Origin: Escherichia phage JES2013
Length of the DNA stretch: 64,000 nucleotides
Strand: one strand, 5' to 3'
Sequence record: KC690136
The first letter of the stretch is position 1; every line of letters starts with the position of its first letter. Position numbers and translations under genes: made by a program. Of this stretch, positions 781 to 54,662 are shown piece by piece. Below the pieces are notes generated by a model. The model saw only the letters and a list, made by a program, of their open reading frames with translations. It was not told the origin of the DNA and did no database searches.

Positions 781-1335
781 TTACTCCCCGCTGTCAATAG
801 CAAAACTCATTGCAATACGGTATGCTTCTTCTAATGGTAAGAGTCTCCCCCACACATCCCAACCGACATCAAGCTGCCTGCCAAACAACTGTTGTGTGGT
901 TCCGTGAGCATGACCGAACAGTTGGACTGATCCATGAGGCTTTCTGTTCCACTTTGCAAACTGGTAATGGCTCATACAGATCAAATTCTTGTTGTGGCGA
1001 AGCTCGTAATAATCTACAACCTCGTGATAGAACTCTTTCATAATTCTGACAGTCGTCCTTGTGTCATGGTTGCCACGAACAAGAATAATATGTCCGTTCA
1101 ACATATTTAGAATATCCGGGAGTAAGTTGTTGATATTCTTATCATTAGTGCACGCAATATCTCCCAAGTGGAACACAGTGTCTGCAGGTGACACAACAGA
1201 GTTCCACTCGGCGATGATTCCTGCATTCATACTGTCAAGATTGTGATCATACTGAGATCTGTGTTTTTGACATGAATCAAACTCCATGACCCGCTGGTGG
1301 AGAAAGTGTGTGTCGCTTGTTACAAAGTATTTCAT
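781..1335 (-). CDS. Calcineurin-like metallophosphoesterase (putative 2',3'-phosphatase partner of kinase)
   Basis: Motifs SDTHF, GDIA, GNHD, GHAHG; start refined to internal ATG (MKYFVTSDTHF) with GAGGAA SD; 7 nt downstream of kinase stop. Confidence 0.7.
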   Translation of the reverse strand: MKYFVTSDTHFLHQRVMEFDSCQKHRSQYDHNLDSMNAGIIAEWNSVVSPADTVFHLGDIACTNDKNINNLLPDILNMLNGHIILVRGNHDTRTTVRIMKEFYHEVVDYYELRHNKNLICMSHYQFAKWNRKPHGSVQLFGHAHGTTQQLFGRQLDVGWDVWGRLLPLEEAYRIAMSFAIDSGE

Positions 1336-1342
1336 ACATTCC

Positions 1343-1753
1343 TCATTTAAGTTTAATGCAGTTTTTAAGCTGGCGTTCCATACGATCCACAACCCTGTCT
1401 GGAACATCATGAATGCTTTTATTACCGTGGCGGTTTTCAACCACGATCACGGTATAACTATACCCATGACTGATTGCCATGTCAACATATTCCTGCACAT
1501 GTTTTTCTTTTGTAAACGTATTACTTACCACGATACGGTCGTATCCCATACGCATCATATCTTCTACGTTATCTTTGCACCATTTTGCTGCGAGTGTTAC
1601 TTTACTTGCATCCCAGTTGTAATTGCCGTCATCGTCATACCAGAACATGTCGTTCTCAAAATGTGGATACAGACCTTCTAAAGATAGCGCATTTGCCAGT
1701 GTTGATTTGCCAGACCCTGGCAGACCACGCACGATATATAGCATTTTAGACAT
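1343..1753 (-). CDS. P-loop polynucleotide kinase-like protein
   Basis: Walker A GLPGSGKST near N-terminus; start refined to ATG preceded by GGAGG; adjacent to phosphoesterase. Confidence 0.65.
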   Translation of the reverse strand: MSKMLYIVRGLPGSGKSTLANALSLEGLYPHFENDMFWYDDDGNYNWDASKVTLAAKWCKDNVEDMMRMGYDRIVVSNTFTKEKHVQEYVDMAISHGYSYTVIVVENRHGNKSIHDVPDRVVDRMERQLKNCIKLK

Positions 1754-1853: not shown

Positions 1854-2789
1854 ATGACAAATGAGGAACGTATGATGAAGTATTTTAATGCAGACGATCT
1901 AGTTGACAAAGGTCTTGTAACCAGCAGATATTACCCAGATCTTGGATTAAAGATTTATAAATATGCCAGAAAAGTATTTTACAACAATTTATGGCATTTG
2001 TCCCCTCGTTTGCTGGAGTGCCGAGGCATTGTTGTCGGTAATGAAGGAAATGTTGTGGCATGGCCCTTCACAAAAGTGTTTAACTTGGGAGAAAATCACA
2101 CCAACCTGCCTGACAATAAGCTTGTGACGGCGGTAGAGAAAAAGAACGGATTCCTCGGTGTGGTGTCATCTCATAAAGGTGAACTATTGTTCTCAACAAC
2201 CGGATCTCTTGATTCCCCATATTGTAACCTCGCAAAGGAAACCATCCGGGAGCAATGTGGTAATTTAGATCTTATCAAGAAGGTTATGGGCAATGAAAAC
2301 ATGACATTCATGTTTGAAATTTGTCACCCTTCAGATCCGCATATTGTTCAGGAAGATCATGGCGCATATTTGATAGGTTGCAGATATAATGATTCTGGAA
2401 TAATGCTACCAGAAGCAGCTTTAGATGGGATTGCCAAATACCTTGGCGCAAAACGTCCTCACACTGTGCGTGAAATTCCGTTCAGCTATGCAAAAGAATT
2501 GGCTGCAGAAACAAGAGGTGAAGGGTATATGATTCGTAAGCCTTACTACCCTTATGATCTGCAGCTGAAGATCAAGTCTCCATACTATCTGGCACGGAAG
2601 GCCGTAATGAGGGGTAAAGCTTGGAAGATTTGGGATGATGATATCTTTAAACGTGTTGACGAAGAGTTTTACGGCATGGTAAACTTCATTCGTAGCAATT
2701 ACACAGAAGATGTGTGGAACTGCCTACTGGAGCAGGAACGCAGGGAGATACTCGACCACTATTTCCACAACGAGGACTATATGCAATGA
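1854..2789 (+). CDS. rnlA: RNA ligase 1 (T4 RnlA-like)
   Basis: LECRGIVV and VFNLGEN match T4 RnlA LECRGIMF/FFNLNEN; nucleotidyltransferase motif I EKKNG; FMFEIC motif. Confidence 0.8.
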   Translation: MTNEERMMKYFNADDLVDKGLVTSRYYPDLGLKIYKYARKVFYNNLWHLSPRLLECRGIVVGNEGNVVAWPFTKVFNLGENHTNLPDNKLVTAVEKKNGFLGVVSSHKGELLFSTTGSLDSPYCNLAKETIREQCGNLDLIKKVMGNENMTFMFEICHPSDPHIVQEDHGAYLIGCRYNDSGIMLPEAALDGIAKYLGAKRPHTVREIPFSYAKELAAETRGEGYMIRKPYYPYDLQLKIKSPYYLARKAVMRGKAWKIWDDDIFKRVDEEFYGMVNFIRSNYTEDVWNCLLEQERREILDHYFHNEDYMQ

Positions 2790-3136
2790 AGAAGTTGATT
2801 GTGTGGCTGGATGATTTGAGAGATCCGTCAAATTATGGACTCCCAGACGCTGTTTGGCTGAAGAATTCCTCCGAGTTTATGGATTTTATTAACGATAAGG
2901 GAAAGCTCTACAGACGCGTTTCTGAGTGGCATATGGACAACGACCTAGGAGAAGTATTCGAAGGATATGATTGCCTATCCATGTTGGAGGAAAAATTTGT
3001 ATTCGGTAAGCCTCCCGTGGTTGACAACGTGAAGATTTTCGTACATACTTCTAATCCATCAGCGGCTCGTAAATTCATGCTTGCAGCTGACTCGTTTAAA
3101 AAGTTTGGAATAGAGATTAAACAAAACATCTACTGA
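2786..3136 (+). CDS. Hypothetical protein
   Basis: ATG overlaps rnlA stop (ATGA); 116 aa; no recognised motif. Confidence 0.45.
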   Translation: MKKLIVWLDDLRDPSNYGLPDAVWLKNSSEFMDFINDKGKLYRRVSEWHMDNDLGEVFEGYDCLSMLEEKFVFGKPPVVDNVKIFVHTSNPSAARKFMLAADSFKKFGIEIKQNIY

Positions 3137-3144
3137 GGACACTT

Positions 3145-3906
3145 ATGCGACGACTGATTATTATCTCCGGTGCTGGTTTGAGCGCTGAATCTGGTATTCC
3201 CACTTTCCGATCTGGTAGCACTGCAATGTGGGAGAATTTCAGCATCGATGAGGTGTGCAACATCCACACCTTTGCCAAGAACTACTATAAGGTGCATGAC
3301 TTTTACAATGCACGTCGCGTAGCTCTGGGCAGTGTTGATCCTAACCTTGCACATCTTCGGATCGCTGAGTGGTATTCCCGCTGGTCTGGTCGTGTGATCA
3401 ACCTTACCACCAATGTAGATGATTTGCTGGAGCGTGCTGGTGTAAAACATGAAGATATTTTACATGTCCACGGGTATTTGCCTGAAATCACCTACGAAGA
3501 TGCTGAAGGTAATGATGTAATTAAAAATATCGGATACACGGAGGTAGATACAGGCAAGTATACCTGGGTTAAGCCCAATGTAGTGTTCTTCGGTGAGGTT
3601 GCTCCTAAGTATACAGACATGTATGACCTGTTGACATCTCTCACAAGCAATGATATGGTGATCCTGGTAGGTTGTTCTAACACAGTTATTAATTTTAACT
3701 GGGAATTGTTTCCTGCTACTTGTAAAGGCACAAAACTGCTGATTGTAAACAAGTATGATTCGCAGAGTGCAGATGGAAGTGGCATTTCACGTAGCGACCT
3801 TTATCAATATGAGGATCGCGGGATCCCTGTATGGTTTAACGGTGCTGTTGACGCTTTCTCTGATAAAGTATTTATTGAAACTGTAGAAAACTTTATGGAA
3901 CTTTAA
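3145..3906 (+). CDS. Sir2 family (sirtuin-like) NAD-dependent protein
   Basis: GAGLSAESGIPTFR matches sirtuin GAGxS..GIPxFR NAD-binding signature; TTNVDDL matches TQNID motif. Confidence 0.75.
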   Translation: MRRLIIISGAGLSAESGIPTFRSGSTAMWENFSIDEVCNIHTFAKNYYKVHDFYNARRVALGSVDPNLAHLRIAEWYSRWSGRVINLTTNVDDLLERAGVKHEDILHVHGYLPEITYEDAEGNDVIKNIGYTEVDTGKYTWVKPNVVFFGEVAPKYTDMYDLLTSLTSNDMVILVGCSNTVINFNWELFPATCKGTKLLIVNKYDSQSADGSGISRSDLYQYEDRGIPVWFNGAVDAFSDKVFIETVENFMEL

Positions 3907-3919
3907 AAGGAGACCTTTA

Positions 3920-4633
3920 ATGCTGAATACTAAACTGATCGACAACCTGGAAAAACTGTCTCAGCCTGAAAACTACCTTTGGTCTGCCAACTGGGTGGAA
4001 AACTGGAACCGTGTGGCAGCTAAGGTGAAAAAATCATACACACCATTCGAATTACAGCTTAGCTTCATTGAGGAAGAGTTCAATGAAGTTTTGGAAGAGC
4101 TGGAGAAAGGTGATGGTGGAGATCACTTGCTAAAAGAGGCCTGCGATCTTCATGTTGTCACAAGTTATGCCGCTTATCTTGTTAATGACAATCACGAAAA
4201 GTGGTCAAACCTGTTTGATAATCCACGAGGTATTAAGTTCAAGATTGGTGAGTTCTATGATACACTGATCGCTGCGAAAAACACCTCTAAGCAAAGAGCG
4301 TCTGCTTACCGCTTAGCAGAGTTGTCAACAGCTTTGCTGTTCCAGCTTCGCGGCGATGTGTGCGGGATGATGCGTAAGGTTCTCAAATCGAATGACAGCA
4401 AGTTTGCACGGGTCAACCATCTACGGTATTCACACGGTGCCAGTGCAGATATGCCTGCTGAACAACTCATCGAGTTGGAGATTAAAGATCTTGAGCGACG
4501 CTTTGATGGTCGATATGAAGGTTTTGTTGCTAAGGAAGAATTCTACAACGGTAATAAAGTTATCATATTCCTTGACAGTAAAGGTAAGATCATGAAGCCT
4601 TCAAGCTTCAAGGATGTAACAGAGTATATTTAA
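3920..4633 (+). CDS. MazG-like nucleoside triphosphate pyrophosphohydrolase domain protein
   Basis: EEEFNEVLEELEKGDGGDHLLKEACDL resembles MazG EExxE...E.GD...DL metal-binding helices. Confidence 0.5.
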   Translation: MLNTKLIDNLEKLSQPENYLWSANWVENWNRVAAKVKKSYTPFELQLSFIEEEFNEVLEELEKGDGGDHLLKEACDLHVVTSYAAYLVNDNHEKWSNLFDNPRGIKFKIGEFYDTLIAAKNTSKQRASAYRLAELSTALLFQLRGDVCGMMRKVLKSNDSKFARVNHLRYSHGASADMPAEQLIELEIKDLERRFDGRYEGFVAKEEFYNGNKVIIFLDSKGKIMKPSSFKDVTEYI

Positions 4634-4638
4634 CAACA

Positions 4639-4656
4639 TAGCCGGGATCACCCGGC
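4639..4656 (+). terminator. Stem-loop AGCCGGG-atca-CCCGGCT after gene stop
   Basis: 7-bp perfect stem directly after stop of 3920..4633; weak T tract. Confidence 0.4.
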
Positions 4657-4666
4657 TTTACTTGTT

Positions 4667-5005
4667 GTGGAAAGTATGCAAGTGAGGCAGATAGTTATGT
4701 ACAAGCACTCTAGAGATCTTGAAAACGATGCTGTGTTTGGGGATCAGATGAAAGAGTTGGTTAAACTCATAGGCAGGATAGAGGATAAGTTTGACACTAA
4801 GATCTACATCGACAGCAAAGTATTCAACCACAAAATATGGACAAATCTGTGTGTTGGACTACATGGAGATAAAGATGTTGTAAATTTAGTTGTAATTAGG
4901 TTCATAGTGTGGCAGAATAAAACTATAAATTATTACGATCCACACCTGCTTGTTTACCCGATAAAAGACCTATTAGATAAGGAGGACTGCAATGCCGTTA
5001 TTTAA
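4667..5005 (+). CDS. Hypothetical protein
   Basis: ORF in co-oriented block; start uncertain. Confidence 0.35.
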   Translation: MESMQVRQIVMYKHSRDLENDAVFGDQMKELVKLIGRIEDKFDTKIYIDSKVFNHKIWTNLCVGLHGDKDVVNLVVIRFIVWQNKTINYYDPHLLVYPIKDLLDKEDCNAVI

Positions 5006-9685: not shown

Positions 9686-10017
9686 TGACTAAAAACTCTG
9701 TAGATAGTGCAATTATGGAAGCTGTTTTTGAGGATGATCATACAACAGGGGCCCTTAAAACAAAAAATACATTCGTTGTTGCCACAGGTATGTGGCGGTT
9801 GTATGAAGATGACACCATTTCATACATCCTGTACACAGATGATTACGCAGATGACCGTGTATGGTCTGCTGTTTTAAAAGAGGATTGTGAGTTGATTGAG
9901 GGCGAGCGGTTATGCATGTTCACCAGTGTGGAAACAGATGTTAAGCTTTGCTCTCTCGTCTTGTTCAAAGATAAGGCTTATGCTCCTGATGAAGGAGAGG
10001 AGGATGAGGAAGCATGA
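9682..10017 (+). CDS. Hypothetical acidic protein
   Basis: 111-aa ORF, acidic C-terminus. Confidence 0.45.
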   Translation: MMTKNSVDSAIMEAVFEDDHTTGALKTKNTFVVATGMWRLYEDDTISYILYTDDYADDRVWSAVLKEDCELIEGERLCMFTSVETDVKLCSLVLFKDKAYAPDEGEEDEEA

Positions 10018-10643
10018 GAGAGCGTCTATTATCCATAGACCAGTCGTTGACACACACAGCTTGCGTTGTATGGGACGATGGAAAGCCTGTTCACAAGGTT
10101 GTGTTACGAACTCAAAGCTCATCTGCAAAAGAGAAGAAACCAGGGACGGTTTCTTTTGCAACAGCTGCTGAGCGTATTGACTGGATCTGCAAACAGGTCA
10201 GATATTATATCCACACGCACGGCGTTGACACCGTGGTTATGGAAGGGCTTTCCTTTGGATCACGCGGGGATGCCACACGTGAACTGGCTGGGTTGTTTTA
10301 CGGTCTTGAAGTTATGCTTTGGGATGCTTTGGCTGATTGTGAAAATGACGGCCTGTTTAAGGTCCACACAGTGACACCAACAACTGCCAAAAAGTTTGCT
10401 CGTAGTCATCTTCCTGAGGAACTTGCTTTTGAGGAGAAGAAAAAGCTTGACAAAAAGACAGGTAAAGAGCATACTGTGAAGAAACCTGTTACGATGGATA
10501 AAAAGTTGATGGTTAAGGCCTGCGAAGTATCTGAACCTGGGTTCCTAGACGGGATCAATTTGGTACAAGGTAAGGCCGATCTCGCAGATGCTTATTGGAT
10601 AGGCAGGGCGCATCTGGAGGGATTATCGCAAAGCGTAAAATAA
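10014..10643 (+). CDS. RuvC-like (RNase H fold) nuclease, putative resolvase
   Basis: LSIDQSLTHTACVV and VVMEGLSF resemble RuvC LGIDPG...AIEQVFM; weak. Confidence 0.4.
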   Translation: MRERLLSIDQSLTHTACVVWDDGKPVHKVVLRTQSSSAKEKKPGTVSFATAAERIDWICKQVRYYIHTHGVDTVVMEGLSFGSRGDATRELAGLFYGLEVMLWDALADCENDGLFKVHTVTPTTAKKFARSHLPEELAFEEKKKLDKKTGKEHTVKKPVTMDKKLMVKACEVSEPGFLDGINLVQGKADLADAYWIGRAHLEGLSQSVK

Positions 10644-11200
10644 GAAAGAAAGCTGTCAAAGCACCCGTTCATAACGGGTGGCTAAAAGATTCTAAGGACA
10701 TAGCCAACTTTCGAAAAGAATTGTCAGAGGAGCAGGATGGTCTTGATCCGATCTTGTGCGAGCCACTTCGTAAGCCTTGTTTAGATCATGATCATCTGAC
10801 TGGTCGTTGCAGGGGTGTTTTGTCTCAGTGCACTAATACCTTTGAGGGGTATGTGCTTAAATACTGGATGAAATACTGTAACGAGTATACAGATTGCAGT
10901 TTATCAGAGGCGTTGCGCCGGATGGCTGACTATTTGGAGAAAGACTACAGCGACTTCCCGCTCCACAAAAACTACAGAGATGATATGACAAAGTTCTTGA
11001 GGAGATGCTCTAAAGCTACGATCATTGCACGAGCAGAATCAGATCTCAATCTTGTCATTAATCCAGAGTGCACCAAGCATGAGGCTATTGAGCTCTACAT
11101 GCAGGAGTTTATAAAGAAAACTGAGGAGAGAGATTTCTATGGGGATGAAAAAGGTATTCAATCCTTGCGACTCAGTCCTGATCAGGATGAAATACCGTAA
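10595..11200 (+). CDS. Endonuclease VII-like recombination endonuclease
   Basis: LCEP..CLDHDHLTGRCRGVLSQCTNTFEG matches T4 gp49 CxxC...LDHDH...RGLLC..CN..EG; 5' end overlaps upstream ORF, true start uncertain. Confidence 0.65.
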   Translation: MDRQGASGGIIAKRKIRKKAVKAPVHNGWLKDSKDIANFRKELSEEQDGLDPILCEPLRKPCLDHDHLTGRCRGVLSQCTNTFEGYVLKYWMKYCNEYTDCSLSEALRRMADYLEKDYSDFPLHKNYRDDMTKFLRRCSKATIIARAESDLNLVINPECTKHEAIELYMQEFIKKTEERDFYGDEKGIQSLRLSPDQDEIP

Positions 11201-20490: not shown

Positions 20491-20769
20491 ATGAGCTGTG
20501 AAAAATCTTTTTTCTTTATTATTTACGGTAAAGATAACTGCCCACATTGTGTAAGAGCAAAAGAATTTGCAGTCAGTAAAGGTCTGCCTTTTGTATATAA
20601 GACACTTGGCGAGGGTTACACAAAAGAAGAGCTTATCGAGAAGTGCAGTCCAATCGTACCCAGAACGTTGCCGCAGATCTTCTTAGAAAGCAATCTTGAA
20701 AGTGTCCATATAGGCGGTGCCGACGATTTCATCTCTTTTGTTAAGAATGGTTTTGGAGAGAAAAAGTGA
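20491..20769 (+). CDS. Glutaredoxin/NrdH-like redoxin
   Basis: CPHC active site in IIYGKDNCPHCVRAKEF; sits between aerobic and anaerobic RNR genes. Confidence 0.7.
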   Translation: MSCEKSFFFIIYGKDNCPHCVRAKEFAVSKGLPFVYKTLGEGYTKEELIEKCSPIVPRTLPQIFLESNLESVHIGGADDFISFVKNGFGEKK

Positions 20770-22889
20770 AAGTTGTAAAACGGGACGGTAGAGAAGAGGT
20801 CTATAACGGAATTAAGGTGATCAAGGCGGCAGAGTCCGCCTTACTTGAGTCTGGACATACTGAAGAAGAAGCTTACCGGATCGCCTGCGCGGTTAATGAA
20901 GTTGTTGCTAACAATCTACCAACCGACCAGTGCACGATCTCTGTAAAAAATATCCATATCCTTGTTGAAGACGCTCTTATGGATATGGGTTTAAAATGTG
21001 CAGCCAGAGAATACATCCAGTATAGGCAGACAAGAGATAATAACAGAGAGGCAGGTGGAAAACTGCTTGCAGATATTAGTGGCTTCTTGGATCGCACTTG
21101 TGATGAATTTACAAAAGAAAACGCAAATAAGCCTACCAATCATGTACACACTCATCGTGACCTGCTTGCAGGCATCCTTAGCAAACACCTTGCATCAACA
21201 CAGATCCTGCCAGACCGTGTCTCAGAAGAGCACAATAAAGGCTTCATCCATGTGCATGATCTTGACTACTTGATCAGTCCGTTAACAAACTGTTGTTTGG
21301 TAAATTATCCAGATATGTTGGAAAACGGATTCAACATTGGCAACGCCCATGTCAGTAAGCCGAAGTCAATAGGGGTTGCAACAACAATCCTTAGCCAAAT
21401 CTCTAGTGCAGTAGCTAGTGCTCAATATGGAGGTCAGACTATGAGCCATATTGATCATTATCTGGCACAGTATGCTGAGGCGACCTATGAGAAGAATCTT
21501 AAATTTTGCCAGGAACACTGGTTGCCAGATGCTGAGACTGTTGCAATGCAAATGACAGATAAAGACGTATTTGACAGCATGCAGACTTTGCTCTATCAAA
21601 TCAATACGTTAACCTCTGTCAACGGGCAAACTCCATTCATCACATTAAGTTTAGGACTGGATACCTCGGTCTTTGGTAGAATGATTACCAAAAACTACTT
21701 GAAAGTCCACAAAATGGGTCTTGGTGAAGAACGTATCACACCTGTGTTCCCTAAAGTGCTGTTCTTCCTAGAAGAGGGTGTCAACATGAGCCCTGGAGAT
21801 CCCAACTATGATTTGAAACGATTAGCTCTGGAATGCTCTGCAGAGCGGATTTATCCTGACTTTGTTTCTGTTCCACTAAATCGTAAAGTGACAGGCTCGA
21901 CAGATGGCAAAGTAACGAGCATGGGTTGCCGGAGTTTTCTTAGCAAATACAATGACTTGGAAACAGGCGAGGAGAAATACCTTGGTAGATTTAACTTAGG
22001 CGTTGTTAGCCTTAACCTGCCAATGATTGCGGCAAAAGCTAAAACGGAAGGTGTTGATTTCTTTGCAGTTCTTGACGAATACCTGGATCTTGCATACGAG
22101 GCTCACCTTGTAAGGGTTAACCGTCTAAAAGGAACAAAGGCAGGGCAGAACCCTATCATGTGGTGTGAAGGCGCTCTTGCTCGCCTGGATCCTGAAGAGA
22201 GTATTGATAAACTCTTCTATGACGGGTACGCTTCCATCAGTATTGGGTATATTGGTGTGTATGAAACCTGTCAGATTTTGGGCAGGGAGGGTGACAAGGC
22301 TTTAGCTCTTGGAATACTCCAGCACATGAGAGATGCTTGTGAGCGATACAAGAAGGAAAGTAGACTAGCGTTTAGCTTGTACGGCACCCCTTCTGAGAGT
22401 CTATGCTATAAAGCTGCAACCTGTCTGGATCGTGAATATCCTGAAGTGTTGAAGCATGAGCATGAATACCTCACCAACAGTTTCCATCAGCCAGTATGGA
22501 TAAATAGCTCTCCTTTTGATAAGTGGGAATACGAGGAAGGTTTTGCTATGATCTCCTCTGGTGGCAACATCGGATACGTAGAGACACCAAATCTGAAAAA
22601 CAACTTAGATGCTTTAGAGGCTCTTGTTGACTTCGGGTATAAACACATTATGTATTTTGGTATCAACCAGCCTGTGGATAAATGTCTTAAGTGTGGTTTC
22701 TCTGGTGAGTTCAGTGCAACAGCTAAGGGATTCGTATGCCCGGAGTGTGGAAACCATGAAGAGGGAACGATCAGTGTGATCAGACGTGTATCCGGGTACC
22801 TGTCTAGTCCAAACTCCCGTCCTTACAATAAAGGTAAGCAAGCGGAAGTTATAGAACGGGTTAAGCACTACGGAAGTTGTGGTTGCTGA
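20766..22889 (+). CDS. nrdD: Anaerobic ribonucleoside-triphosphate reductase
   Basis: 707 aa; C-terminal glycyl-radical-like RRVSGYL and zinc ribbon CLKCGF...CPECGN; followed by activase. Confidence 0.85.
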   Translation: MKVVKRDGREEVYNGIKVIKAAESALLESGHTEEEAYRIACAVNEVVANNLPTDQCTISVKNIHILVEDALMDMGLKCAAREYIQYRQTRDNNREAGGKLLADISGFLDRTCDEFTKENANKPTNHVHTHRDLLAGILSKHLASTQILPDRVSEEHNKGFIHVHDLDYLISPLTNCCLVNYPDMLENGFNIGNAHVSKPKSIGVATTILSQISSAVASAQYGGQTMSHIDHYLAQYAEATYEKNLKFCQEHWLPDAETVAMQMTDKDVFDSMQTLLYQINTLTSVNGQTPFITLSLGLDTSVFGRMITKNYLKVHKMGLGEERITPVFPKVLFFLEEGVNMSPGDPNYDLKRLALECSAERIYPDFVSVPLNRKVTGSTDGKVTSMGCRSFLSKYNDLETGEEKYLGRFNLGVVSLNLPMIAAKAKTEGVDFFAVLDEYLDLAYEAHLVRVNRLKGTKAGQNPIMWCEGALARLDPEESIDKLFYDGYASISIGYIGVYETCQILGREGDKALALGILQHMRDACERYKKESRLAFSLYGTPSESLCYKAATCLDREYPEVLKHEHEYLTNSFHQPVWINSSPFDKWEYEEGFAMISSGGNIGYVETPNLKNNLDALEALVDFGYKHIMYFGINQPVDKCLKCGFSGEFSATAKGFVCPECGNHEEGTISVIRRVSGYLSSPNSRPYNKGKQAEVIERVKHYGSCGC

Positions 22890-54164: not shown

Positions 54165-54662
54165 TCAACACTTTTTGTACTCCACCACGATAATATTCAT
54201 ATCAAAAGTGGCAAGGTTAATAACGTCCTCTACGTGCTCCCACTTCAAACCGCCTATGCCGCACCCGATCTTAGGGATGTAGAATGGTAAAGTCGATCCA
54301 CTGAATACCTCATTGACTAGCTCAAAGCCTTTCAGGATTGAGAAATATTCAGCATTAGGTCCTGGGTAGAACTGAGTATACAGATTGATTCCGTAGACAA
54401 TACCTCTCGGAGATAAGTGCTCCCATCGGGAGAACGCACCCAGTTTACTTAGGCAACCGTGTCTGGTCTCTTTGTCAGCTGCCAATGCTTGAGGGAACTC
54501 ACGGGCAATCTGTTTTGCTATCCCCTTGCCCATTGTGTGGAAGCAGTTACAACCGTGGATCAGGTGACCAGCACCGCTCTTAAAAAGGGAGATTAAATCT
54601 CCCTCTACAGTATCAATAATCACGGTATGCCAGCTCCTCTTCCGCAATTTCAAAAAACTCAT
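54165..54662 (-). CDS. Macro domain protein (ADP-ribose binding/processing)
   Basis: VIIDTVEGDL...GHLIHGCNCFHTMGKGIAKQI and IPKIGCGIGGL match macro-domain motifs; start uncertain. Confidence 0.65.
   Translation of the reverse strand: MSFLKLRKRSWHTVIIDTVEGDLISLFKSGAGHLIHGCNCFHTMGKGIAKQIAREFPQALAADKETRHGCLSKLGAFSRWEHLSPRGIVYGINLYTQFYPGPNAEYFSILKGFELVNEVFSGSTLPFYIPKIGCGIGGLKWEHVEDVINLATFDMNIIVVEYKKC

Follow-up and report, generated by a model that had tools for sequence, protein, structure and literature searches.

The window analyzed here is a stretch of 64,000 nucleotides of Escherichia phage JES2013 (sequence record KC690136), and our subject is the open reading frame (ORF) at positions 3145..3906 on its plus strand, which starts with ATG, codes for 253 amino acids, and is the third gene of an operon headed by an RNA ligase gene. 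On the basis of profile, fold, NAD-binding loop, and catalytic histidine, this ORF is a member of the Sir2 superfamily (a sirtuin). The Pfam model SIR2 (PF02146) matched it with an E value of 7e-28 and 98.2 bits (cutoff 24) over profile positions 1–178 of 180, and PHROG 2162 ("Sir2") matched it with an E value of 1.6e-108, which confirmed the family named in an initial annotation of the window. The NAD-binding signature GAGxSxxSGIPxFR reported in that annotation was found at G9-AGLSAESGIPTF-R22. In phmmer alignments with E. coli CobB (PDB 1s5p) and human SIRT5, His109 (in the motif HVHG) fell on the catalytic histidine of both proteins (HMHG and EIHG, respectively), and N90 and D92 fell on the Asn and Asp of the TQNID motif. 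Because His109 and the NAD-binding residues were retained in these alignments, the sirtuin looks catalytically intact and is predicted to be active, and NAD+-consuming chemistry is likely.

These residues were conserved throughout the phage relatives of the protein. In an alignment of 120 phage homologues (46–93% identity), G9AG11, S16, F21R22, N90, D92, and H109G110, together with F148F149xE151, G176xS178, and N202, were invariant or nearly so, and the catalytic His109 itself was invariant within the clade. The C terminus of the phage sirtuins was extended in a manner specific to the clade, and C38 and W29 were invariant as well. The closest solved structures were the class III sirtuins CobB, SIRT5, and Archaeoglobus Af1 (phmmer E values of about 1e-19 to 3e-21), onto which the AlphaFold2 model of the sirtuin (pLDDT 89.4) could be superposed with TM scores of 0.72–0.84. 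For CobB (PDB 1s5p and 6rxj) and SIRT5 in particular, the E value was about 3e-21, the identity about 27%, and the TM score 0.74–0.84, and the GAGxSxxSGIxTFR loop, the NxD motif, the catalytic His, the FGE motif, and a Tyr-x-x-Arg pair were common to both sides. However, unlike CobB and SIRT5, the phage protein had no CxxC...CxxC zinc site, carried Thr in place of the Gln of TQNxD, and was encoded by a phage within an RNA-repair operon. The TQNxD position was occupied by T88-T89-N90-V91-D92, in which the Asn and Asp were kept, but the Gln was replaced by an invariant Thr (T89). The Zn-binding Cys4 module was absent, as no Cys was present between H109 and K143, and the only Cys residues of the whole ORF were C38, C177, and C193.

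The segment of the window from 2500 to 5000 was 100% identical by megablast to Escherichia coli O157 typing phage 4 (KP869102.1; Vequintavirus, rV5-like), with matches of 90–99% in 118 other records, and relatives of the sirtuin were detected by tblastn in about 986 phage records, including the T5 gene T5p100, whose product was 57% identical to the window sirtuin. In the records matched by megablast, the gene is already labeled "cobB: NAD-dependent protein deacylase," "putative Sir2-like protein," or "Sir2 (NAD-dependent deacetylase)." In keeping with these labels, the sirtuin might be an ordinary NAD+-dependent lysine deacylase of the CobB/SIRT5 kind, acting perhaps on succinyl or malonyl groups and resetting host or phage protein acylation early, with RNA-repair neighbors that are coincidental or regulatory. 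The Tyr-x-x-Arg pair of class III sirtuins, established in SIRT5 as the specificity residues for anionic acyl-lysine, was indeed present, with F53-Y54-N-A-R57-R58 aligned by phmmer to FYNARR of CobB and FYHYRR of SIRT5, and Y54 and R57 were invariant across the phage clade. All deacylase catalytic residues were thus in place, and the best matches in both sequence and structure were CobB, SIRT5, and Af1. Nevertheless, we considered this explanation rather unlikely. The sirtuin scored far under the NCBIfam equivalog cutoffs for CobB (122.6 vs. 243 for NF001753 and 104 vs. 320 for NF040867, with lower scores for the other models); CobB orthology was therefore rejected, and the widespread database label "cobB / NAD-dependent protein deacetylase" is without support at the equivalog level, as judged from sequence scores. 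Furthermore, the clade has lost the Zn cysteines and replaced the conserved Gln by Thr, and neither an acyltransferase nor a known acylated target was found nearby.

The operon that contains the sirtuin gene consists of four genes: Rnl1, cREC, Sir2, and MazG. The first gene (1854..2789, plus strand) encodes an RNA ligase of the T4 Rnl1 (RnlA) family, which was matched by RNA_lig_T4_1 with an E value of 6.9e-15 and by TIGR02308 with an E value of 5.8e-10, the latter match being well under the equivalog cutoff. Its stop overlaps the start codon of the second gene (ATGA), which encodes a cREC (cyclic-phosphate-processing receiver-like) protein (2786..3136, plus strand; cREC_REC PF20274, E = 2.7e-14). 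The start of this gene agrees with the annotation of KP869102 and of phage Murica, and residues D9, D10, D51, D53, H87-T-S-N-P91, and K96 of its product were at least 95% conserved among 54 homologues. Only 8 nt separate the cREC stop from the sirtuin gene, and 13 nt separate the sirtuin gene from the last gene of the operon (3920..4633, plus strand), with an AAGGAG sequence located 13 nt past the Sir2 stop. The last gene encodes a nucleotide pyrophosphohydrolase-like protein of the MazG/PRA-PH superfamily (phrog_671, E = 5e-22); no Pfam model matched it at E ≤ 0.01, and its RefSeq label is "nucleotide pyrophosphohydrolase." The operon is closed by a GC-rich hairpin resembling an intrinsic terminator (4640..4657, plus strand; a 7-bp stem with six GC pairs and a T-rich tail), which follows MazG, is the sole terminator-like hairpin on the operon strand, and coincides in position with an annotated terminator of phage Murica.

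Divergent to this operon, two genes on the minus strand encode further candidate RNA-end enzymes. A P-loop kinase of the AAA_33/polynucleotide-kinase type (1343..1753; AAA_33, E = 1.5e-10; Zeta_toxin), with the P-loop GLPGSGKST and matches to phrog_2071 and phrog_505 "polynucleotide kinase" (E = 9e-10), is a candidate RNA 5'-OH kinase. The other gene (781..1335) encodes a calcineurin-like metallophosphoesterase (Metallophos, E = 1.1e-6; Metallophos_2; phrog_547 phosphoesterase, E = 2e-52) that carries the motifs SDTHF, GDIA, GNHD, and GHAHG and starts as in KP869102; it is a candidate RNA 2',3'-cyclic phosphodiesterase or 3'-phosphatase for the healing of RNA ends. An operon of Rnl1, cREC, and MazG accompanied by a kinase and a phosphoesterase points to RNA-end repair. 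Thus, we tentatively proposed that these genes form a phage cassette for the repair of RNA breaks in which the sirtuin is the enzyme that uses NAD+, a reading that we hold to be close to evenly balanced. As for the specific chemistry, the removal of 2'-phosphate from RNA by means of NAD+ in the manner of KptA/Tpt1 is possible but doubtful.

Both the neighborhood and the hypothesis have been described before. For Escherichia phage V5, Proteus phage Mydo, and Escherichia phage SP15, the same neighborhoods were reported together with the proposal of a KptA/Tpt1-like, NAD+-dependent removal of RNA 2'-phosphates; in the type represented by the T5-like SP15, the sirtuin was found with an HAD phosphatase, and in the jumbo-phage version, a Nudix protein takes the role of MazG (Iyer et al. 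2022, Viruses 14:1977, PMC9503650). The window sirtuin belongs to this published clade of RNA-repair-associated sirtuins. The phage is of the same genus as V5, which has the identical neighborhood, composed of a T4-like RNA ligase, cREC, a nucleotide kinase, MazG, and a calcineurin-like phosphoesterase; we found no substantive difference from the clade as described, and the HAD context of the T5/SP15 type was reproduced in our survey. Because the gene had been annotated and the reading published in 2022, the RNA-repair interpretation is not new: the gene, its family, and the context-based hypothesis are already known from GenBank and the literature. What the present analysis adds is the residue conservation (T89, the missing Zn cysteines, and Y54/R57), the boundaries of the operon, and the separability of the sirtuin from the ligase.

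In the proposed pathway, for which we follow Iyer et al. (2022), host anticodon nucleases and other metal-independent RNases would leave 2',3'-cyclic phosphate and 5'-OH ends on tRNA and other RNA. The phosphoesterase, cREC, or both might open the cyclic phosphate, the kinase would phosphorylate the 5' end, and Rnl1 would seal the break. The sirtuin would then strip the residual 2'-phosphate, at a terminus or at the junction, by moving it to NAD+ as Tpt1/KptA does. In deacylation by sirtuins, the first attack, on C1'' of NAD+, is made by the acyl oxygen; the ribose 2''-OH, which is activated via the catalytic His, then attacks the adduct, and a 1'',2''-cyclic intermediate results. The two steps of Tpt1 are analogous, except that the nucleophile is an oxygen of the phosphate. 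As the two chemistries share this two-step logic, the invariant His109 would fit a Tpt1-like role. Y54 and R57, which bind a carboxylate in class III sirtuins, could bind phosphate instead. The ADP-ribose cyclic-phosphate by-product would be cleared by cREC and MazG, and the Poa1p-like macro-domain protein encoded elsewhere in the window might finish its removal in trans.

The likeness to Tpt1/KptA would thus be one of chemistry by analogy, in that the 2'-phosphate of an RNA would be removed with the help of NAD+ and a 1'',2''-cyclic ADP-ribose product would arise; ligase, kinase, and cyclic phosphodiesterase likewise accompany Tpt1 in the fungal pathway. The sirtuin is not a member of the Tpt1/KptA family, because the Rossmann fold of sirtuins is unrelated to the ART fold. 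KptA was detected in 98 phage records, mostly of jumbo phages, and among the KptA matches listed, none came from sirtuin-positive genera. This non-overlap is compatible with analogous replacement, although we regard it as a weak point. In the KptA-positive jumbo phages Erwinia phage RAY and Klebsiella phage FBKp24, the genes next to KptA carried no annotation, and Pfam searches with ten of these yielded nothing useful.

As a further explanation, the sirtuin might act like SirTM or SIRT4/6 as an ADP-ribosyltransferase on macromolecules, with a protein or a nucleic acid of the host (tRNA or RNA/DNA ends, for instance) being modified for takeover rather than repair. Sirtuins can ADP-ribosylate (PMC9503650, PMC8883491), the Gln-to-Thr change in the NAD-ribose pocket, together with the missing Zn module, suggests that the chemistry is non-canonical, and the gene lies in the early gene region. 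We nonetheless judged this improbable. No reversing hydrolase, antitoxin-like partner, or SirTM-type operon (GcvH-L/LplA2/macro) adjoins the gene; His109 is invariant, although plain ADP-ribosyl transfer would need no such residue; and the neighbors are healing and sealing enzymes and not takeover factors.

We surveyed 52 loci from IMG/VR that encode relatives and searched them using the window's own proteins. On Mydovirus-like contigs of about 145 kb, the metallophosphoesterase, Rnl1, cREC, the kinase, Sir2, DNA ligase, and, further along, MazG were encoded on a single strand with amino acid identities of 33–63%, in a different gene order in which the kinase lies between cREC and Sir2. In T5-like phages, which lack the operon and the divergent partners of the window sirtuin, the sirtuin gene was located less than 1 kb from HAD_SAK_2 (PF18143), a "Swiss-army-knife" HAD phosphatase of RNA repair, which lies downstream of the sirtuin in Salmonella phage gmork and upstream of it in Erwinia phage KEY. 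The linkage to RNA-end enzymes therefore survives both divergence and rearrangement in the Mydovirus-like phages and recurs in an independent context in the T5-like phages, and we counted both in favor of repair. In the 279-kb jumbo-phage contig L052 (9721-14642), the sirtuin was flanked by DUF4326 and a nucleoside 2-deoxyribosyltransferase-like gene, and genes for RlaP, a nucleotidyltransferase of RNA repair, and for a Thg1-like tRNA-His guanylyltransferase were found 2–4 kb away on the other strand, which we also counted in favor of repair; the sirtuin of this contig was more canonical, with both the CxxC...CxxC Zn cysteines and the TQN motif kept. Repeated, independent linkage to Rnl1/cREC/kinase, to HAD_SAK_2, and to RlaP/Thg1 is a further argument against an ordinary deacylase, although the occurrence of the sirtuin without an RNA ligase in T5 and in the distant relative L054 speaks for one.

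Several observations weigh against the RNA-repair reading. T5 encodes no homologue of the RNA ligase, cREC, the kinase, or MazG, and in phi92-like phages, no recognizable partners of the sirtuin were found. Conversely, the locus L060 (7001-10571) carries cREC, the metallophosphoesterase, Rnl1, the kinase, DNA ligase, and a MazG-like gene without a sirtuin. In L054, a partly syntenic backbone was retained in which NadV and Prs are followed by the sirtuin, DNA ligase, and MazG, but no Rnl1, cREC, or kinase was detected within 10 kb; in L059 and L061, cREC was present, and neither Rnl1 nor a sirtuin was detected within 7 kb. These loci demonstrated that the RNA-repair cassette is modular: a sirtuin may be present where the ligase module is absent, and vice versa. 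Because the two are separable in L060, L054, T5, and the phi92-like phages, some of their co-localization may stem from a shared plastic region of early and nucleotide-metabolism genes beside the DNA ligase. Moreover, the kinase, the metallophosphoesterase, and Rnl1 by themselves form a complete heal-and-seal pathway of the T4 type, in which no 2'-phosphate is made. Y54/R57 and the best structural matches, which are to CobB with bound acyl-peptide, fit an ordinary deacylase equally well. Finally, no experimental work, either biochemical or genetic, was found in the literature on phage sirtuins, on the Sir2 of T5 or rV5, or on T4 Tk.4.

The initial annotation had connected the sirtuin with a macro-domain gene elsewhere in the window, at 54165-54662, and had tentatively read the pair as a means of manipulating host NAD+/ADP-ribose signaling. 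The macro domain was found to be genuine, whereas the start of the gene was probably misplaced. The protein, a T4 Tk.4-like member of the TARG1/DarG/Poa1p clade, was matched by the Pfam model Macro (PF01661) with 27.9 bits (cutoff 22), with only a partial stretch aligned, by phrog_335 with an E value of 9e-59, and by the DarG macro models of PADLOC and NCBIfam with E values of about 1e-13; it was 69% identical to Tk.4 of RB49. Its AlphaFold2 model (pLDDT 96.8) resembled the macrodomains of TARG1, DarG, and Poa1p with TM scores of 0.75–0.85 and Foldseek E values of 2e-10 to 3e-9. The start is probably the GTG at 54623 (54165..54623, minus strand, 152 aa) and not the ATG at 54662 (165 aa) that is used in some GenBank records, because homologues are about 152 aa long, the FFH2 gene spans 459 nt in RefSeq, and GAGGAG precedes the GTG; from this start, the gene overlaps the stop of the upstream gene by 11 nt. 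The family was present in 2661 phage records and adjoins vs in T4-like phages.

The active-site residues of the macro-domain protein agreed in part with those of Poa1p. Among 45 family members, H23-G-C-N26-C was invariant, T30 was present in 35, and Q84 in 44. His23 and Asn26 are common to Poa1p and the macro family, whereas Ser30 of Poa1p is replaced by Thr and F152 of Poa1p is not conserved; the same Poa1p pattern of H23, N26, and Ser/Thr30 has been reported for the macro protein of the Pakpunavirus Adele. The catalytic Lys of DarG, TARG1, and AdfM (K80 in TaqDarG and K78 in AdfM), located after a conserved Thr, corresponds to Q84 (INLYTQ vs. INFPTK), and the position of Asp125 in TARG1 is occupied by Gly. 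A DarG/AdfM-like role against DarT was therefore rejected, although the best profile matches were to DarG, since the catalytic Lys is Gln84.

The proposed partnership of the two proteins, in which they would jointly manipulate host NAD+/ADP-ribose signaling or counter NAD-depleting or ADP-ribosylating defenses, fared poorly, and we consider it very unlikely. In its favor, both domains are real and, judging from their residues and models, look active; macro domains of this clade process the by-products of sirtuins and of Tpt1, and Poa1p-type enzymes hydrolyze ADP-ribose-1''-phosphate, the end product of the Tpt1 pathway, as well as O-acetyl-ADP-ribose, which sirtuins produce (PMC8883491); counteraction of DarT2 has been demonstrated for a macrodomain of phage origin, AdfM (PMC13309987); NadV and Prs lie beside the sirtuin in the distant relative L054; and the macro gene is only 6 kb from the sirtuin in contig L046. 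However, in the window, a distance of 50 kb separates the two genes, which lie on opposite strands and in different transcription blocks; the interval contains the genes for replication and ribonucleotide reductase as well as an extended series of small hypothetical genes. Their distributions are also decoupled: macro genes were far more common (2661 vs. about 986 records), and the T5 genome contains the sirtuin but no macro homologue, as determined by tblastn and a hidden Markov model built from 45 family members. Macro domains occur in 41% of myoviruses versus about 1% of siphoviruses, and the present sirtuin clade was explicitly described as not macro-coupled (Iyer et al. 2022, PMC9503650). 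Since macro domains are so widespread in myoviruses and the distributions are decoupled, the co-occurrence of the two genes in Vequintavirus is what the background frequency would lead one to expect. Coupling was thus rejected on the phage-wide distributions and on T5, and a biochemical hand-off between the two proteins is conceivable by analogy, though without genomic support.

Nor did the anti-defense side of that proposal find support. A consumer of NAD+ would deepen NAD+ depletion and not relieve it, and the window contains no homologue of NadV, Prs, or HAD_SAK. No ADP-ribosyltransferase or NADAR was present in the FFH2 annotation of the homologous region of about 49 kb. The sirtuin, a single-domain protein in a lytic phage, matched no PADLOC model for defense-type Sir2 (ThsA, DSR1/2, Sir2-HerA, or pAgo-associated) at E ≤ 0.01, so this assignment was rejected, and the macro protein lacks the Lys of DarG and AdfM. 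A macro-coupled sirtuin of the SirTM type was likewise rejected. The SirTM-macrodomain operons (Rack et al. 2015) and the toxin-antitoxin-like pairs of sirtuin and macro genes in Streptomyces phages resemble the window in having both domains in one genome; in those systems, however, the two genes are adjacent and co-transcribed, whereas here they have independent distributions and the operon partners of the sirtuin are Rnl1, cREC, and MazG. Because the sirtuin sits in an RNA-repair operon and has no genomic tie to the macro gene, RNA repair is more likely than a joint attack on host NAD+ signaling.

If the RNA-repair reading with its Tpt1-like chemistry were true, sirtuins would gain a second class of substrate, RNA phosphate ends, and the sirtuin fold would have its first nucleic-acid-directed phosphotransferase, a non-orthologous replacement of Tpt1/KptA that takes 2'-phosphates, or terminal 2'/3'-phosphates, off broken tRNA. 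The common "cobB" label in the databases would be corrected as well. Phages would then possess an NAD+-dependent branch of RNA repair, a yeast-like 2'-phosphate route, beside the classic T4 Pnkp/Rnl1 pathway, which would bear on their escape from tRNA-cleaving defenses. Only the proof would be new, and a sirtuin shown to act on RNA 2'-phosphates would be notable biochemistry.

Several minor observations were made in the relatives and in the window itself. Contig L046, a viral contig of 89.9 kb, carries the macro homologue at 4048-4533 (35% identity) upstream of the sirtuin at 10001-10735, and a metallophosphoesterase and a gene weakly resembling MazG lie in the vicinity; this contig was the only one of the 52 loci with a macro gene near the sirtuin. 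In L054 (4723-8027 and 9693-13210), L059, and L060, genes of the NadV/NAPRTase family and PRPP-synthetase-like genes (NAD+ salvage, NARP2-like) lie directly upstream of a variable block, in which these 145–153-kb phages encode the sirtuin, cREC, Rnl1, the DNA ligase, and MazG; the sirtuin or cREC of these phages was 42–47% identical to that of the window. In the position syntenic to MazG, behind the DNA ligase, L059 and L060 carry a gene with a weak or faint PRA-PH mark. A link to phage NAD+ reconstitution was considered and rejected, as the NARP3 paper does not discuss a phage sirtuin and NadV and Prs are missing from the window; near this region, they were carried only by the distant relatives L054, L059, and L060. 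The "nicotinamide mononucleotide transporter" annotated beside the sirtuin in PSa2 was also set aside; it is a 64-aa ORF whose label we judged unreliable. In Escherichia phage ECO340P2 (L056:1940-2215), which is phi92-like, a gene with an Acb2/Tad1 hairpin domain, a family of anti-CBASS/anti-Thoeris sponges, was observed about 4 kb upstream of the sirtuin, and no RNA-repair partner was recognizable at this locus.

ARAGORN detected no tRNA gene within the window, and a phage tRNA cluster (Pro, Met, Thr, and Arg, with more in Murica) was located about 2.5 kb before the window start, near the RNA-repair cassette (KP869102.1 88889-89425; L001:827-1363). The anaerobic ribonucleotide reductase gene nrdD (20766-22889, plus strand) is present in the window as one intact ORF of 707 aa; nrdD of the related phage FFH2 is annotated as two pieces with an HNH homing endonuclease gene between them.

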